Positions 6,678 through 14,743 of a stretch of 64,000 nucleotides of DNA are shown here, one piece after another. Position 1 is the stretch's first letter. The number at the start of each line of letters is the position of its first letter. Origin of the DNA: Bdellovibrionales bacterium (GTDB taxonomy: Bacteria > Bdellovibrionota > Bdellovibrionia > Bdellovibrionales > UBA1609); NCBI GenBank assembly GCA_041690295.1, contig JAWLHR010000006.1:32001-96000 (forward strand), in the 5' to 3' direction. The position numbers and the translations under genes are program-made. The notes under the pieces were generated by a model. It made no database searches, had not been told where the DNA came from, and saw only the letters and a program-made list of their open reading frames with translations.

Positions 6678-6916
6678 ACAGGTAACTTGGGGAAACTGGG
6701 CACTAATTTTAGATAATTCACGTGGGAAATATCTCGTAGGTAGATGTGTGTTTCAGATTGAGAAGAGTCACAAAAGTCTTCTCAGATTGAAATGTTCAAC
6801 TTTTATCGAAGAGTCAGGGTTATCTACGTCAATAAATGCTCAGTTCGATTCTATTCGCGATCCGTTAATTGGCATCCTTTGCAATGTTAAAGAACGGACA
6901 TTCGGGGGAGTCTACT

Positions 6917-7582
6917 ATGAGCATAAACAAACTTAGCATTTCATTGGCGACGGTTGTGGCCGTTGTGATTTGCTTTCAGAATTGCCAAAACGCCAAAATG
7001 GCGACCAACGGCGCCTCTTTAACTTTGGTTGATGATGCCGGTATCCAGAATCCCCTTGATAACAATAATCCACCGACAACACCCAATCCAACACCGGCGC
7101 CGACGCCCGCTCCCTCGCCTGATCCATCTCCCACTCCAAGTCCGACGCCGGCACCCACTCCAGCGCCCACTCCCACTCCAACTCCGTATCCTCACCCTGA
7201 GGATGACGGTGACCAAGATGACAATCACCATGGTGACGATTGTCGCGATCCGAAAGGTCATGAGAGAGAGGATCGCGAATACGTTTGCCAAATCAGCGGT
7301 CCTGGAAAATCCACTTACGTGGGCCTTGATAAGCACGGTGATGATCTTGAACGCCGTCACGAGGGGAAAAAGATGCTTTGCATGACCCGTATGGCTTGCG
7401 AAGTGATCGCGGCTCAAGCCTTTCCTGGGGCGCGCGCCGAAAAGCGGGGCTTCTGTACAAACCACGGCAATAAGAATGTTCAACACATCAGCGAGAAGCG
7501 CATGCAGGACCTCGTGGAGGAGTACATAAGCGAGAATCCGAACGGATCTCCATCAGGTCACAATTTCGGTAATCCAAATTAA
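6917..7582 (+). CDS. Putative lipoprotein (FQNC motif) with a Pro/Thr-rich linker and a Cys-containing C-terminal domain
   Basis: GGGGAG RBS before ATG 6917; hydrophobic stretch ending in FQNC; (PT/PA/PS)n tract; four Cys in the C-terminal domain. Confidence 0.75.
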   Translation: MSINKLSISLATVVAVVICFQNCQNAKMATNGASLTLVDDAGIQNPLDNNNPPTTPNPTPAPTPAPSPDPSPTPSPTPAPTPAPTPTPTPYPHPEDDGDQDDNHHGDDCRDPKGHEREDREYVCQISGPGKSTYVGLDKHGDDLERRHEGKKMLCMTRMACEVIAAQAFPGARAEKRGFCTNHGNKNVQHISEKRMQDLVEEYISENPNGSPSGHNFGNPN

Positions 7583-7666: not shown

Positions 7667-9172
7667 ATGAGCGACTTTCAAAAGGGGAATCGCGTCCATC
7701 GCATTTTAAATCCGTGCGATGGGCTGCAGGCGAGACTGGAGTTGCGGAAGGCGGAACAATCCGGTGCCCGGCAAGTCTTAATGTCCCAAGAAATCTGGCA
7801 AGGGTTTTCTTGGCCAAGCCTGGGACGGTTTGAATGGTTGGTGGAAGTGCCCTGGGATCGGCGCCACCTCACTCATATTAAGTCGCCTCCAAGCCGTATT
7901 GTCCTGGTGATTCAGGGGCACGAAATATCGTTGCGGGAAACCGGTGATTTACAAAAGTGGCCGCCCCAAAGGTTCGACATCCTCGTTCGACCCGATCGCA
8001 GGGTTAATTTTCGCCGTTTGCTTGATCTTCTGCCGTCGTTGATTGAGCGACCGATTTATTTCGAATTTCTTCCGTGGTCGCAAAGCCGGCCGGAACGGAT
8101 GACCGTTGGCGAAGTCCGAAGCTTTCTAGCCTTGGCGGCGCGCCATCGTCCCGATTTAAGAATTCAGCCTTTTCCGGGATTAGAGGTCACTGATGACCGT
8201 ATTGACCCGTCTTTGGATTTAGAACCGATTGTTGATCCTGTAATTGAAACGCGGCCATCGGGTGGATCACCTTTGATTTCCGTCATCATTCCTTCTTTCA
8301 ATAATCGTCCGTTTTTGACGAATGTGATGAGGCACCTTATTCGGCAGGAGTTTTCGAGAACGGATTACGAAATCATCGTCGTGGATGACGGCAGCACGGA
8401 TGGCACCGAAGACGCCATGAGAAGATTTTTCGTCGACCAGTCTAATTTCGCCTACATCAGCCTGCCGCGGCCGCGGGCTCGTGAGCGCGGCGATGATCAG
8501 TTTCGAGCCGGTATCGCCCGCAATGTGGGAGCCGCTCACGCCCGTGGATCTCATCTTCTTTTTCTTGATTCCGATATCATCGTTGGCTCGACTTTTCTTT
8601 CCCGTATGGCTCGTGCCTTGAACGACGGCGATGTCGTACAATGTGAACGGCATCACATTCCGGCGGAGCTTTCCAATGAAAACACGGACTACGACAAAAT
8701 TCGCATAGGTCCTGAGACTTATATTGAAAATCCCAGCTATCGCCGCCCATTTTACCGCACTGACGATTGGCACTTACTGCCTTATTTCTGGAAGTACACC
8801 TGTACCTACTGTCTCATGGTTTCAAAAGCGGATTTTTACTCGGTCGGCCGGTTCAAACGTTGTTTCACGACTTATGGATTTGAAGATGTCGACTTGGGTT
8901 ATGAACTCGCGAAGCGGGGGAAAAAGTTCAAGCTCTTACACGAGAAAGTTCTTCATTTGACCCCAACCCAAGAAAAGTCCGAATACCGCCATTCCGCGCT
9001 GATCCGCGATCGACTTCTGTCAAAAACCGCGAAAACGTTTTTTCTGCAGCATCTGGATCCGGAGATCTACGATCATTTTGAAGTTTATATGCGAGAAAGC
9101 GGCTGGAGCCGGAATGCTCTACGGATTCAGAGAGGGCTTCGGCACTTCCTTGAAGCGGTTCAACTCTCTTGA
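7667..9172 (+). CDS. GT2 glycosyltransferase with ~200-aa unknown N-terminal extension
   Basis: ISVIIPSFN, IIVVDDGSTDGT, ARNVG, FLDSD, GFEDVDLG motifs. Confidence 0.88.
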   Translation: MSDFQKGNRVHRILNPCDGLQARLELRKAEQSGARQVLMSQEIWQGFSWPSLGRFEWLVEVPWDRRHLTHIKSPPSRIVLVIQGHEISLRETGDLQKWPPQRFDILVRPDRRVNFRRLLDLLPSLIERPIYFEFLPWSQSRPERMTVGEVRSFLALAARHRPDLRIQPFPGLEVTDDRIDPSLDLEPIVDPVIETRPSGGSPLISVIIPSFNNRPFLTNVMRHLIRQEFSRTDYEIIVVDDGSTDGTEDAMRRFFVDQSNFAYISLPRPRARERGDDQFRAGIARNVGAAHARGSHLLFLDSDIIVGSTFLSRMARALNDGDVVQCERHHIPAELSNENTDYDKIRIGPETYIENPSYRRPFYRTDDWHLLPYFWKYTCTYCLMVSKADFYSVGRFKRCFTTYGFEDVDLGYELAKRGKKFKLLHEKVLHLTPTQEKSEYRHSALIRDRLLSKTAKTFFLQHLDPEIYDHFEVYMRESGWSRNALRIQRGLRHFLEAVQLS

Positions 9173-10228
9173 AATATAATCGAGCTCTTCCGTCATCAGG
9201 CCTGGAAAGAGCGGCAAAGAAAGGGCGGATAAAGAAATTCGTCGCGCGTTCGGGAATTCGCCCGTTTGGTATTTGTTCACTAAGTCCGGAAGCAAGTAAT
9301 CATAGTGGCGCTGAGTTTCGATTCCAGCGTCTTTCAGTTGGGACTCAAGCCGGTCTCGATCGTCAGATAGAATGACGAATTTGCTCCAAGTTGAATGTTT
9401 CTCTTCCAATTCGGGCAGGACGTACATGAGGCCGATCCGATCGCAAATGTTTCGATACCGGCTGACGATATTCGCGCGCGAGGATTGAAGTTCACCATGA
9501 CGGTTGAGATTTTTCATGAGCCCCAAGGCCAAAATCTCATTGGGCTTGGAGTTTAGGCCGCGTCCGAGAAAATGATGGCCTTTAACCCGGCCCTGCGAAC
9601 GAATGGCGCGAATTCTTTCGTGCAAGGCTCGGTCCGCGGTCGCGGTGGCTCCACAAGTTCCGAAGGTATAGATGGTTTTTGTGGGATCAAAACTGTAACA
9701 GCGAATCGAATTGATTTCCGGCGGAGCGCTGGGTGAACACCACTGGGCGCAATCCTCGATGAGGGTCAAACCATAGGTCTTCGCCAGTTGAGCCATCGTT
9801 TTGAGACAAAAAGGATGACCGTAAAGGTGAACACCGATCACAACGCGCGCGTCGGAATGGGTCCGCAAAATCTGTTCTAGGTGAGCCCAATTAAATCCGC
9901 TTCCGTTTTCGCCGGTGTCCGCGAAGACGGGGATCGCGCCGATCGTTGTAACCGCGTTCAAGGTGGCGGCGAATGAGAGCGCCGGAAGGACAACGCGATC
10001 GCCAGGTCGAACGCCAACGGCTAATAGGGCGATCTTCAAGGCGTCCGTGCATGAATTGGTCAATGCGACATAGGGGAGCTTTAAGAAATCCGCCAGCATT
10101 TCCTCGGCCGCTACCACATTCGATCCGAGAATGTATCGGCCGCTTTTTAAGATGAAATTGATCTCGTCACCGCCGACTTGCAGTGGAACTCTCGTGAGAT
10201 CAAGAAAAGGTACTTTTATGCCATTCAT
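9119..10228 (-). CDS. DegT/DnrJ/EryC1/StrS PLP-dependent sugar aminotransferase
   Basis: SCTDAL, VHLYG, IEDCAQ, SFDPTK (PLP Lys), LSLPLFP. Confidence 0.9.
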   Translation of the reverse strand: MNGIKVPFLDLTRVPLQVGGDEINFILKSGRYILGSNVVAAEEMLADFLKLPYVALTNSCTDALKIALLAVGVRPGDRVVLPALSFAATLNAVTTIGAIPVFADTGENGSGFNWAHLEQILRTHSDARVVIGVHLYGHPFCLKTMAQLAKTYGLTLIEDCAQWCSPSAPPEINSIRCYSFDPTKTIYTFGTCGATATADRALHERIRAIRSQGRVKGHHFLGRGLNSKPNEILALGLMKNLNRHGELQSSRANIVSRYRNICDRIGLMYVLPELEEKHSTWSKFVILSDDRDRLESQLKDAGIETQRHYDYLLPDLVNKYQTGEFPNARRISLSALSLPLFPGLMTEELDYISRELNRFKEVPKPSLNP

Positions 10229-11189
10229 AATACGAATCCAGTCCGGCCAAAAGCGACATTGCGGGCTTATAACCGATCAAGGAGCCAGCCTTGCGAATAT
10301 CAAGGCGCGTGCGATGGGGTTCATATCTTGTGCTCGGTGAAGATGAAATCTTTAAATCGGGAAAATACCGTTTTTTAACAAAAGCGATCAATTCACGTAA
10401 AGTCGGACCGTCTTCCGAGGCGATATTGAAGATCTGATTGTTACCCTCGGGTCGCGTGGTGGCCAAAAACACGCCTTCCACCACGTCATCGACGTAAGTC
10501 AGGTTCAATACGGAAGATTCATTTCGCAAAGGAAATTCCGCACCCGATTGCCCCGCTAAAAACAATCGGCTGATGACACGACCATTTCCATCCAGCGGCC
10601 CATAGACCGCGATGGGACGCACGATTGTATAGGGAATACGTTGTTTACCACAAATCTCGATCACTTTGTTTTCGCAGGCTGATTTCCAAAAGCCATATCG
10701 GTTGATCGGCTTTAACGGCGTTTCTTCATGCACGCTCCGGCTTGTGAAGTGTCCATACACCATGCTGGAGGAGAGATAAACAAATCGATCGGGTCGCGCG
10801 ACTTGAAGCTCATTCAAGACTCCCAGGGTGACATCGTAGATGCCGCGTTTGGCTTGATCCTCATCCTGTTCCGCGATCGACGCGATGGAAAGATTGGCCG
10901 CGTGGATAATTATACGAGGGGATAGACTTTCAAGCAGCCGGCGGGTCTGGTCGCGATCGCACAAGTCGACTTTGTGAAATGTAGCGGGCCTTAGAATCTC
11001 TCGTCGTTGTTTGGTGATGCGCTCGAAAATTGATGGCGGAAGTTGGTGCAAATTAATTTCGTTATCCGCGACGTGCACATCAAACCCAGCTTGCCACATG
11101 CGTCGCGCCAGTGATGTGCCGATAAATCCCGCTCCGCCACAGATCAAAACTCGCATGAACATCTTCCGTTGAAACCTTGAAGATATCAT
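10200..11189 (-). CDS. NAD-dependent nucleotide-sugar epimerase/dehydratase
   Basis: GGAGFIG Rossmann motif, SSSMVYG, YGFWK, VYGP, YVDDV. Start may be 11162 or 11156. Confidence 0.9.
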   Translation of the reverse strand: MISSRFQRKMFMRVLICGGAGFIGTSLARRMWQAGFDVHVADNEINLHQLPPSIFERITKQRREILRPATFHKVDLCDRDQTRRLLESLSPRIIIHAANLSIASIAEQDEDQAKRGIYDVTLGVLNELQVARPDRFVYLSSSMVYGHFTSRSVHEETPLKPINRYGFWKSACENKVIEICGKQRIPYTIVRPIAVYGPLDGNGRVISRLFLAGQSGAEFPLRNESSVLNLTYVDDVVEGVFLATTRPEGNNQIFNIASEDGPTLRELIAFVKKRYFPDLKISSSPSTRYEPHRTRLDIRKAGSLIGYKPAMSLLAGLDSYYEWHKSTFS

Positions 11190-11230
11190 AATACGCAGAA
11201 AGGACGGATATTCAAAAAGGAACTTGCTCC

Positions 11231-12076
11231 ATGAACACGCCGACCATCTCGCGGTTCTTTCTCATGACGAATTGGGTCAGGCTCAACTCTCTCCTGCTGG
11301 AGCTCGATTTGGATCCTCCGCTCAAGGATATCGACCAAGAGAGCGGAATGGCGATGCTTGAAGAAATCTGGCGCCAAGATCCGAGGACCGAAGTGACGTT
11401 GGCCAATGTGGCTTTGGATTGTTGGGATTTGGTGAAATTGGCGTGTTTCAAGGGAAAGCCCTTGCGCCTTCAACTCGAATGGCGCGATTTAGCCACGGAT
11501 GAAGAGCAATTGCGCCGGTGGATTGGAGACGGTTTTGGCTTGGACATTTGGGGCTATGGGGATCATGAGTGGGCTCAGTCTTCATTTTATGATTTTCTTT
11601 CGTCCCCTCAGGTTCGCGTTGTTCGAATTTGCAATGAGAGCTTGTGGTTTGGCGTGGATCGAATGGATCCGGAAATTCGTTTATGGTTCCCGCCGGAAGC
11701 CAATCGAAGCGACTATTTCACGGCTCGTGATTTCTGGCTCTGGCGTCAAAGATATCCCAGGGTGGATTCACGACTGATTTTTTACCAGCGGATTGATGGC
11801 GGCCCGTTAAGAAAAGATGTCAGCCCATATTACTACGATGGCGTCACGGATCCATTGGATCGGGCCTGTGTCGGACCTTTTGAATGGACGATGACCAGCT
11901 GGTTATTGCGATCCTGTCAGCGGGGTTCAGTCTTTGTATTTTGGCTGATTTTTTACTTTCTCGATTTTTGGTGTTCGTCACCCCGTCGCCGTTGGCAAAA
12001 ACTCTGGGCGTTTCCCGTTGAGTCCCTGCGAATCTCGCTGAAATTGCTGCGATTCACTTTGGGGGTGCGAACGTGA
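11231..12076 (+). CDS. Hypothetical protein in glycosylation cluster
   Basis: 281-aa ORF whose stop overlaps the GTG of the next GT2 gene (GTGA coupling). Confidence 0.65.
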   Translation: MNTPTISRFFLMTNWVRLNSLLLELDLDPPLKDIDQESGMAMLEEIWRQDPRTEVTLANVALDCWDLVKLACFKGKPLRLQLEWRDLATDEEQLRRWIGDGFGLDIWGYGDHEWAQSSFYDFLSSPQVRVVRICNESLWFGVDRMDPEIRLWFPPEANRSDYFTARDFWLWRQRYPRVDSRLIFYQRIDGGPLRKDVSPYYYDGVTDPLDRACVGPFEWTMTSWLLRSCQRGSVFVFWLIFYFLDFWCSSPRRRWQKLWAFPVESLRISLKLLRFTLGVRT

Positions 12077-13080
12077 AAAGTCTCGACTTGTCGATTGTGA
12101 TTCCGGCTCGAAGTGATACGAAAGTTTTGGCGGGTTTGCTTAAGACTTTGCTGCATCAGCGTGGCGCCAGCTTTGAAGTGATTGTGGTTAGCAACCCCAC
12201 ACCGATGAAGGCCATCCGCAGAGATCCGAGAGTCCGCTATATTCACTCCGCGCCCGAGGGGGTGAATCGCGCGCGAAACGCGGGAGTGCGAGCGAGTCGG
12301 GGAGAGTGGATTTATTTTTTAGATGACGACTGCCGGTTGGTATCGCGGGATCATCTTGAGAAACTGACGCGAAAACTAAGAAGTCTCGGACCCGAAACGG
12401 TTCTGGGGGGACCTTACATTCACGCCGGTTCGGGGCGATGGTCCGAGGCCTACCACCTGCTTCAGCTTCGATATTTAGCGGAAGGGATGAATTCGCCCGT
12501 GGGGGCGAAACATTTATTGGGGGGAAATCTCGCCCTTCATCACAAGGTTTTCGAAAAATTTCTTTTTAACGAAGACATCGAGTTTGGTGGCGCCGAGGTT
12601 GAATTTCTTTACCGTTTGTGGCGCGCTGGATTCAGAGGCGAATTCGCCGAGGATTTACCCGTTCGTCATGAACATGAGTTGACCGCCCATGAGTTCGTGA
12701 AGAAGGCGGTCCTTCAGGGATTTCATGTGGAAGAGCTGATTGGAAAATACCCGGATCTGATTCCGTTTCCCCGCCACTACCTTCCAACCGAGCGAATACG
12801 TAAATTTAAAACCGAAATTGAAGTGTACGGTTGGGTTTTCGATAATGGTCGCGCCCAGCGCCGATTGGGGCTTCGTCCCCAAGTTCCAAAAATCATTGCA
12901 CCACTCCTGGAGACCAGCTCCAAATCCGCGGAGATGGAACAACTCTGTCCCGCGGACCGCCAAGTGAAACCCTACACGGTGATGGATCGGATTAAAGAGT
13001 GGTGGACTCATCCAAGCGCCCGACAAAAATCACTTGGCCGCTTTCTTCTGTATGTGCTTGAGCTCAAGAATTCGAAGTGA
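12073..13080 (+). CDS. GT2 glycosyltransferase
   Basis: LSIVIPA, ARNAG, FLDDD, GGNL motifs. Confidence 0.85.
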   Translation: MKSLDLSIVIPARSDTKVLAGLLKTLLHQRGASFEVIVVSNPTPMKAIRRDPRVRYIHSAPEGVNRARNAGVRASRGEWIYFLDDDCRLVSRDHLEKLTRKLRSLGPETVLGGPYIHAGSGRWSEAYHLLQLRYLAEGMNSPVGAKHLLGGNLALHHKVFEKFLFNEDIEFGGAEVEFLYRLWRAGFRGEFAEDLPVRHEHELTAHEFVKKAVLQGFHVEELIGKYPDLIPFPRHYLPTERIRKFKTEIEVYGWVFDNGRAQRRLGLRPQVPKIIAPLLETSSKSAEMEQLCPADRQVKPYTVMDRIKEWWTHPSARQKSLGRFLLYVLELKNSK

Positions 13081-13089
13081 GAAAAAGGC

Positions 13090-13122
13090 AAAAAAAAACC
13101 CGCGTCGTCCCTGAAACGCGGG
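13090..13122 (-). terminator. Intrinsic terminator closing the riboswitch RNA
   Basis: Minus strand CCCGCGT-loop-ACGCGGG followed by T9. Confidence 0.85.
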
Positions 13123-13158
13123 CCCGTTGTACCTTCCAACATTCTGCTTTAGGCCCAG

Positions 13159-13253
13159 TTCCTCTGGTAACCCGGCCGGCATAATCTCCTTGAAATGTTA
13201 GCCCCGTGGTTTTGCGTCCCACCCTTTCAGGTGGTTTGCCCTTAGCAAAGGAA
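13159..13253 (-). ncRNA. c-di-GMP-I (GEMM) riboswitch aptamer
   Basis: Minus strand reads GGGCAAACCACCUGAAAGGGUGGGACGCAAAACCACGGGGCUAA...GCCGGCCGGGUUACC: GNRA-capped P2, GACGCAAA junction, P1 UUCCUUUG/CAGAGGAA. G20 and C92 equivalents retained, so c-di-GMP rather than cGAMP type. Confidence 0.93.
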
Positions 13254-13487
13254 GAACAACTGTTTGATCACTCCCTCAACTCCGTGAGGGAAGTTGCTCT
13301 GCGACTTCCCCGCCACATCACTTCGGTGGTGGATCAAGCCGCCTATCCTTAGGCAGAATCGCCATCGGACCCTCCTCCTACGAAGCCGTTCGTGGCTCCT
13401 TAAACTATGATAATGCAAAGCGTCATCAAAGGCGATGAGGAATTGCCAAGGGTTTCAACTCGATATGTGGAATTTAAGGAATCGAAA

Positions 13488-14344: not shown

Positions 14345-14743
14345 GTGGTGCCTCCAATTGAGCCTACAACGTTCTGGCTGTACTACGCCGGTGGTTTTTT
14401 GCTGCTGGTGTGGCTCTTATTTTTTCGGCGCCGCCGCCGGGGCATGAGGCTGCACCTGGGTGGAGCAAAAGCTCGAAAGGCGCTAACCGTGGACAACGGA
14501 GCCGCAGAGCCCGTCACGACCGCCGCCACGGGTGGTGAACGGTCGATCAACGTGGTTTTCAATTACAATGGGCACTCCTGGGACGCCTACGAAGTCCTCG
14601 GGCTTCCCGCGGGATGCTCGCTCGCGCAAGTCGAAGCCGCTTATCAAAAAGGCCTTGCCGAAGTGGACAGCTCATCCCGGCCATTCATCGAAGCGGCCTA
14701 TTCCGCGATCAAGGGAAGTCAATCCCGCGCCTCCGGACAATAA
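14345..14743 (+). CDS. Membrane-anchored protein with C-terminal J-domain-like segment
   Basis: N-terminal TM helix followed by an Arg run; DAYEVLGL...AAY...AY pattern without HPD. Confidence 0.7.
   Translation: MVPPIEPTTFWLYYAGGFLLLVWLLFFRRRRRGMRLHLGGAKARKALTVDNGAAEPVTTAATGGERSINVVFNYNGHSWDAYEVLGLPAGCSLAQVEAAYQKGLAEVDSSSRPFIEAAYSAIKGSQSRASGQ

Follow-up and report, generated by a model that had tools for sequence, protein, structure and literature searches.

The c-di-GMP riboswitch RNA on the minus strand at 13090..13401 of the window (the whole 64,000-nucleotide stretch of Bdellovibrionales DNA analysed here) is best explained as a micro-ORF mRNA whose 3' end would be switched by c-di-GMP and to which CsrA would bind as a secondary partner. 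We propose this full mechanism tentatively, from sequence comparison, folding models and analogy. A separate gene of ~310 nt would couple a 15-codon proline-rich ORF to a two-state c-di-GMP switch on its own 3' end. Without ligand, a pyrimidine tract would pair with a GGAAG strand (helix P0), with P1 open and the terminator intact; with ligand, P1 would close, P0 would melt and a helix overlapping the base of the terminator would form. The output in the genus would be the 3' end and the stability of the RNA and, through them, the amount of micro-ORF mRNA, which would set the level of the peptide or of the ribosome paused at the DPPP-K stop. In several sister families the same switch would instead unmask a second micro-ORF. 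CsrA would probably bind at three or four hairpin ANGGA sites, one of them in the ORF, which would make the RNA a target of CsrA that could serve as a sponge only in a secondary way, comparable to the C. jejuni flaA mRNA.

The relative of this RNA in Bdellovibrio, merRNA, ranks with the most abundant transcripts of the hunting predator, and its role has been unsettled since 2013, a passive store being the published idea. With a conserved frame that is probably translated, an anti-P1 helix that co-varies, and genus-specific CsrA-type hairpins, that role can now be addressed by point mutations in a tractable predator. If true, a riboswitch acting on the 3' end of its own micro-ORF mRNA would be new to specialists, as would a first Csr-antagonising RNA in the phylum.

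A stand-alone riboswitch RNA and its relation to merRNA

The Rfam model search bore out the c-di-GMP-I aptamer that an earlier note on this DNA had recognised. RF01051 matched 13250-13163 on the minus strand over the full model (positions 1-87) with 82.1 bits, where the gathering score is 35, and E 1.2e-14; this was the sole match in the 2.9-Mb, 99.9% complete genome. With its 8-bp P1 (13253-13246 / 13166-13159) the aptamer occupies 13159..13253 on the minus strand and carries AAGGA in P3 at 13191-13187. In the Vc2 numbering, as we tentatively map it onto the window RNA, G20 lies at 13240 and C92 at 13167; G20 is found in 78/81 loci. These two residues are described as marks of specificity for c-di-GMP and not of the cGAMP type (PMC6140456). 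G20 rules out cGAMP specificity, and the aptamer is, by its sequence, of the c-di-GMP type.

The whole predicted RNA measures ~310 nt from the promoter element to the U tract. Transcription presumably starts at about 13401-13400, downstream of a promoter-like element with the -10-like hexamer TATCAT at 13407..13412 (minus strand). The hexamer was not called by a generic sigma-70 scan; in the alignment, many of the order's loci have a similar element 5' of the RNA. The strong terminator reported after the aptamer was confirmed at 13122-13090 (minus strand), ~40 nt 3' of the aptamer, as an intrinsic terminator with AGGGA (13112-13108) in its loop. The next gene is indeed convergent, a glycosyltransferase gene at 12073-13080 on the plus strand. 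With this convergent neighbour and no conserved downstream gene, the aptamer does not qualify as a cis regulator of a gene downstream.

The usual upstream neighbour, outside the RNA, is an mrp/apbC-like gene (14273-13488, minus strand; best NCBIfam match ApbC, under the curated cut-off). Within the fetched flanks it was found upstream on the same strand in 52/85 loci, including 13/17 of the own genus and 12/28 of family f10, to which merRNA itself belongs, and a terminator scan between mrp and the RNA called none. These data would fit an mrp 3' UTR with a passenger aptamer, a reading that the earlier note had allowed for and that we consider very improbable. The promoter-like element is conserved, the upstream gene is divergent in three own-genus loci (L008, L025, and L026), other genes are inserted after mrp in L006 and L011, and the merRNA promoter was reported as the strongest native promoter tested (bioRxiv 2025.05.17.654431). 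The downstream side varies as well, the neighbour being convergent in 11, on the same strand in 4 and unclear in 1 of 16 own-genus loci. The promoter-like element, the variable neighbours, and the divergent or inserted upstream genes together argue that the RNA is a gene of its own and not merely the 3' UTR of mrp.

In the surroundings, a cluster of sugar-modifying or glycosyltransferase-like ORFs fills 7667-13080, between the RNA terminator and an ORF at 6869-7582. Since in L012, L019, and L020 a homologue of the latter lies directly next to the RNA in convergent orientation, the cluster looks inserted here. Divergent from mrp lies a small ORF (14345-14743) with a weak DnaJ-like stretch (E 0.047), and similar ORFs are found there in several relatives.

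RF01051 matched in 16/17 same-genus genomes, once per genome, and in 101/151 genomes drawn from the order. We analysed 85 loci, namely all 25 from the search that covered the own genus and 60 chosen by hand from the order search to span families; the locus counts given here include related genomes, and kin are not independent. Two aptamers of the c-di-GMP-I class lie ~0.85-1.05 kb apart in genus g62 (G118:C4 78157-79097 and G137:C7 54058-55210), whose other genomes carry a single one. A pattern scan of named genomes returned, among the 80 of 121 matches listed, Bdellovibrionota records that include B. bacteriovorus L142, L160, and L169. These three share the common layout of SD-led ORF, tract, aptamer, and terminator. 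From promoter to U tract they measure 448-450 nt, as against the ~310 nt of the window RNA, and the published length of merRNA is 445 nt (PMC3627812).

The layout, the promoter-like element of its own, the terminator, and the B. bacteriovorus records support the earlier description of a stand-alone merRNA-like RNA, and we hold with high confidence that the window RNA is a true merRNA orthologue. Both are stand-alone units with a promoter-like element, a single c-di-GMP-I aptamer and a terminator, often downstream of mrp, and both have an SD and a micro-ORF 5' of the aptamer together with the P0 competitor helix. They differ in that the B. bacteriovorus records have a second micro-ORF after the aptamer, ending DWFHSP, whereas the window RNA lacks this frame and has an antiterminator-like helix and ANGGA sites borne in loops. 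We read the 310-nt length as a variant of merRNA and not as exclusion from it; the variant is shorter and has a single micro-ORF, a 3' module that resembles an antiterminator, and CsrA-type hairpins limited to the genus. In the part of the published account drawn on here, merRNA is described as extremely abundant, attack-phase specific and non-coding, an ORF having been sought only 3' of the riboswitch, and no conservation was found beyond Bdellovibrio (PMC3627812). The openly accessible literature, searched on merRNA, Bdellovibrio CsrA, riboswitches as CsrA sponges, riboswitches with small proteins, and Bdellovibrio ribosome profiling, yielded no report of an ORF or of CsrA sites in merRNA, and the portion of PMC9140294 covered has nothing on merRNA.

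The micro-ORF 5' of the aptamer

The region 5' of the aptamer had been described as folding into further hairpins. The RNA region as a whole folds more stably than all 100 shuffles (z -3.4), and the part 5' of the aptamer is not purely non-coding and holds a conserved micro-ORF. This frame, sORF1 (13365-13318, minus strand), encodes the 15-residue peptide MAILPKDRRLDPPPK followed by a stop, and a strong Shine-Dalgarno sequence, AGGAGGAGG, is seen upstream at 13379-13371 on the same strand. A long predicted hairpin (13301..13342, minus strand) covers the 3' half of sORF1 and its stop codon, with energies of -10.8 to -29.9 kcal/mol among the 17 RNAs of the own genus that were folded.

A pattern devised after sight of the sequences, a short ORF 5' of the aptamer with PP or P(K/E) at its end, was present in 67/85 loci. 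On the reverse strand it occurred in 10, and the 20 shuffles gave 3.65 on average (maximum 9). A slightly different pattern found the ORF in 26/37 new loci from an independent scan (among the matches listed). When five positional homologues were added by hand, 72/85 loci in 8 families had an sORF1 homologue; all 72 starts were picked by hand and the five added are without the pattern. The frame is absent from the other 13/85 loci, including all 6 of family f2.

In the own genus the frame runs for 15 codons from the curated start in 17/17 loci and contains DPPPK in 16/17. Over its last 11 codons pN/pS is 0.12, as against 2.5-3.9 in the shifted frames, and the third codon position has an entropy of 1.09 bits compared with 0.11-0.22 at the other positions. 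All three stops are used among the 72 ORFs (TGA 36, TAG 26, TAA 10). An SD-like sequence precedes 66/72; the six ORFs that have none coincide with the six long forms (27-31 aa), and five of these start 6-8 nt after a -10 element and look leaderless. The last five residues include PPP in 34/72 ORFs and PP in 17 more, and four ORFs are without late proline. On these signatures sORF1 is very probably translated. Part of its conservation may be at the RNA level, as hinted by one Lys codon that is AAG and never AAA and by GAT in 17/17. A Pfam search with the six long forms gave no match, an exact search for them in a collection of 15 billion proteins found none present, and the genome contains no second frame ending DPP(P/F)(K/E)-stop.

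Other arrangements of small frames were noted in the relatives. L079 has three SD-led micro-ORFs in tandem and L080 has two (within the 330 nt searched), all of them with PPP and one further residue at the end. Shortened RNAs without sORF1 are found in genus g26 and family f2 (L029, L031, L032, L003, L018, and L083-L086); in genus g9 of f2 the aptamer is preceded by a promoter-like element at a distance of ~30 nt and, in most loci, followed by an SD-led micro-ORF. Two further candidates were rejected. An ORF starting in aptamer P3 with an SD and an AUG (MPAGLPEE...) uses an AUG that belongs to the Rfam consensus and is AAG, ACG, or AGG in several relatives, and its frame is not kept. No conserved second micro-ORF was found after the aptamer in the own genus.

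Helices P0 and P1 and the 3' end of the RNA

A pyrimidine tract (13246..13260, minus strand) is common to P1, the ligand-bound helix, and P0, the ligand-free one. It can pair either with the 3' strand of P1 (8 bp in the window RNA) or with a GGAAG strand ~30 nt later, which forms P0. The P0 strands co-vary: taking one locus per genus (n=33), cognate duplexes averaged -10.5 kcal/mol and swapped ones -9.1 kcal/mol, and 0/5000 permutations were as good. P1 was predicted to be open without ligand in 78/81 loci. The P0 3' strand, 13137-13126, is predicted to be the strand gated by the ligand, although forcing P1 in the folds frees this strand by construction.

What the P0 strand carries differs between families. 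In f10, f5, f4, and most f2 loci it is the SD or the start region of a second micro-ORF; in f10 an ATG that shares its frame with F(H/Y)SP lies beside or on it in 28/28 loci. The last codons of the f10 frame (ME...DWFHSP and a stop, for example in L142) are almost free of synonymous change, and the frame has an ANGGA with variable N in 24/28 loci; its constraint is probably in part at the RNA level.

A second purine element, a perfect SD-like GGAGG, lies 15-75 nt upstream of P1 in 56/78 loci, and a start codon follows in only 11/56. As a partner of the tract it was rejected, with cognate duplexes at -7.61 and swapped ones at -7.55 (p 0.39), that is, no covariation. Its conservation would therefore have another cause, such as CsrA, the 30S subunit (a standby site) or a pseudoknot.

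merRNA has been proposed to be a c-di-GMP store (PMC3627812), and the window RNA could likewise hold c-di-GMP passively until prey contact. The extreme abundance of merRNA and the intact G20-type aptamer, one copy per genome, agree with this proposal. However, a store would need neither a conserved helix that is predicted to hold P1 open nor conserved micro-ORFs, and we find a reservoir rather improbable. Because P0 co-varies and competes with P1 across the order, the RNA is predicted, from sequence and folding models, to be a two-state switch and not a passive store.

In the micro-ORF mRNA that we prefer, the switch would act on the 3' end. An antiterminator-like helix (13156-13151 / 13125-13120; 13120..13156, minus strand) overlaps the 5' arm of the terminator, taking its first three bases, and holds the P0 3' strand in its loop. 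It is 99% paired in 16 RNAs, with one pair changed on both sides, and comparable helices of other pair types are found in the sister genera g24, g26, and g29. When P1 was forced in a local nascent fold of the window RNA, sequestration of the terminator arm rose from 0.00 to 0.99. A shift above 0.5 is predicted for only 9/16 genus RNAs in local folds and for 4/16 when the whole nascent RNA is folded. With P1 forced, the full-length window RNA still keeps its terminator (0.00; genus mean 0.22 to 0.78). Masking of ribosome footprints produced no consistent change of the switch (means 0.57, 0.61, and 0.53), the terminators of L012, L019, L020, and L025 being mis-assigned in these masked folds and correct in the folds without ribosome.

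These data also bear on a tandem attenuator, in which pausing at PPP codons (as a sensor of EF-P or Pro-tRNA) and c-di-GMP would together set read-through into the neighbouring gene or antisense to it. The late prolines, the hairpin over the stop codon and the antiterminator-like helix would suit such a device, and there is a precedent in Salmonella mgtP, where a short ORF with consecutive Pro codons lies in a structured RNA with alternative helices (PMC3641672). We nevertheless give it little credence. The window RNA differs from mgtP in that it has no conserved downstream operon, the neighbours being varied as given above, and the folding with masked footprints did not support coupling to the position of the ribosome; the four ORFs without late proline also speak against it.

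As read-through would reach no conserved gene, the micro-ORF mRNA would most likely have its own 3' end and lifetime as output, by exclusion and by analogy with Vc2 of V. cholerae. There, a 3' c-di-GMP riboswitch was reported to control the stability of the upstream sRNAs (bioRxiv 10.1101/617340), and the window RNA resembles it in being a short RNA that has its c-di-GMP-I aptamer close to the 3' end. The two are not identical, as Vc2 also heads tfoY and its sRNAs are reported not to arise from termination, whereas the window RNA has an intrinsic terminator and a micro-ORF, and no gene is conserved downstream of it.

ANGGA motifs and CsrA

The earlier note had interpreted the RNA as a ligand-gated sRNA that titrates CsrA. 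All six ANGGA motifs on which it drew are present, at 13401, 13350, 13285, 13276, 13191, and 13112 (13397, 13346, 13281, 13272, 13187, and 13108 in its numbering). Its figure of about one expected by chance is true only against the genome average. ANGGA occurs 1.24 times per 321-nt tile genome-wide, and at least six in 0.25% of 17,944 tiles. When the region itself was shuffled with its dinucleotides kept, 2.7 were expected (P for at least six, 0.049). Plain GGA is not enriched in the region (12 versus 10.4 expected, P 0.3). Four of the motifs had been placed in loops. In the global fold this holds for 13285 (open 0.99) and 13112 (open 0.85) and in part for the P3 motif (0.36), whereas 13401, 13350, and 13276 are paired (0.02-0.04). 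A local hairpin test accepted three sites, 13350, 13285, and 13112, which puts the region in the top 0.6% of tiles (111/17,944).

The first of these sites is in a hairpin internal to sORF1 (13339..13356, minus strand) whose AAGGAU hexaloop is a candidate CsrA site; its stem shows 83% pairing, 2 pairs co-vary, 8/16 RNAs have a mismatch at the closing pair, and the motif, 13346-13350, falls in the Lys-Asp codons of sORF1. The second is a hairpin at 13273..13290 (minus strand) with ACGGA, the 13281 motif, in its loop; its stem is 98.6% paired, and it is the positional counterpart of the order-wide GGAGG. Among 16 aligned RNAs of the genus, ANGGA is kept at 13350 (16/16), 13285 (13/16), 13191 (12/16), and 13112 (15/16), but not at 13401 (1/16) or 13276 (2/16). 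The N is A, G, or U at 13350 and any of the four bases at 13285. That N varies at these two sites while A and GGA stay, despite amino-acid changes in the ORF, suggests a protein site at the RNA level.

The number of ANGGA per RNA was 5.25 versus 2.83 in shuffles in the genus and 5.07 versus 2.87 in f10, with no enrichment in f12 (2.73 versus 2.80) and a weak one in the other genera of the own family, f1 (3.0 versus 2.2). Of the six motifs, whose conservation the earlier note had proposed to check, four are kept within the genus. Hairpin sites numbered 2.6 per RNA in the own genus, at most 1.2 in every other group and 0.6 in f10. Open ANGGA came to 2.4 per RNA against 0.9 in shuffles, and in f10 they were no more open than in shuffles.

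The genome does encode CsrA (PF02599, 90.8 bits; L001:1429-1656, minus strand), in a gene adjoining fliW. As csrA was found in 140/151 genomes of the order, including genomes where no aptamer was found, its co-occurrence with the RNA says little. CsrA of B. bacteriovorus was reported to repress a flagellin reporter and was implicated in predation (PMC13443453), so that a physiological link would be plausible. In C. jejuni, CsrA binds AAGGA in loops and is titrated by the flaA mRNA (PMC4894983).

A ligand-gated CsrA sponge as the main role would mean that titration by the RNA relieves flagellin repression in the swimming phase and that c-di-GMP tunes it. In its favour are the csrA gene next to fliW, the four motifs conserved in the genus, the open ANGGA in excess of shuffles with three hairpin sites, and the flagellin leaders, which carry ANGGA, one of the seven with the same AAGGAU hexaloop as the sORF1 hairpin. 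The f10 second micro-ORF with its variable-N ANGGA, the flagellin reporter and the attack-phase specificity of merRNA (PMC3627812) point the same way. Against it, the excess over local chance is about twofold, loop sites outside the genus are few, two of the six motifs lack conservation, and CsrA is of the FliW type, with a protein antagonist of its own. The strand predicted to be gated, 13137-13126, contains none of the six ANGGA motifs, and in most of the RNAs it is no ANGGA. The RNA also departs from a Csr/Rsm sponge in being very probably coding, with a conserved ORF that has a coding signature. We consider the sponge unlikely as the main role: of the earlier interpretation, the presence of csrA and four motifs conserved in the genus stand, while ligand-gated titration of CsrA as the core function is not supported.

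CsrB-type RNAs have many more repeats. The window RNA shares with CsrB, RsmY/Z, and the C. jejuni flaA mRNA the ANGGA in hairpin loops and a site in early codons (PMC4894983), and with C. jejuni a FliW-type CsrA in the genome. It differs from the Csr/Rsm sRNAs in its few sites (3 in hairpin loops), with no GGA enrichment and not kept across the order, and in being likely coding and having an aptamer. A pairing sRNA dependent on Hfq was rejected, there being no Hfq match in the 99.9% complete genome.

For the micro-ORF mRNA, then, we regard CsrA as probably a secondary binder, from the motifs and the folds. A bolder scheme, to which we assign a low probability, would have the merRNA-family RNAs act as c-di-GMP-switched micro-mRNAs while the RNA of this genus also titrates the CsrA of FliW type by way of four hairpin sites that are conserved, one in the micro-ORF, and so licenses hunting-phase flagellin synthesis; c-di-GMP, polyproline-stop translation and CsrA would then converge.

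Elsewhere in the genome, two flagellin leaders (G000:C1 ~104200-104300 and 106400-106500; L087 and L088) carry several ANGGA, one of them in a perfect hairpin, and by sequence they are likely native CsrA targets. Three mostly non-coding stretches have four hairpin ANGGA sites each, more than the window RNA (G000:C1 72586-72829, minus strand; C23 1212-1506, plus strand; C17 6798-7009, plus strand), and are candidates for CsrA targets or for a true Csr sRNA.
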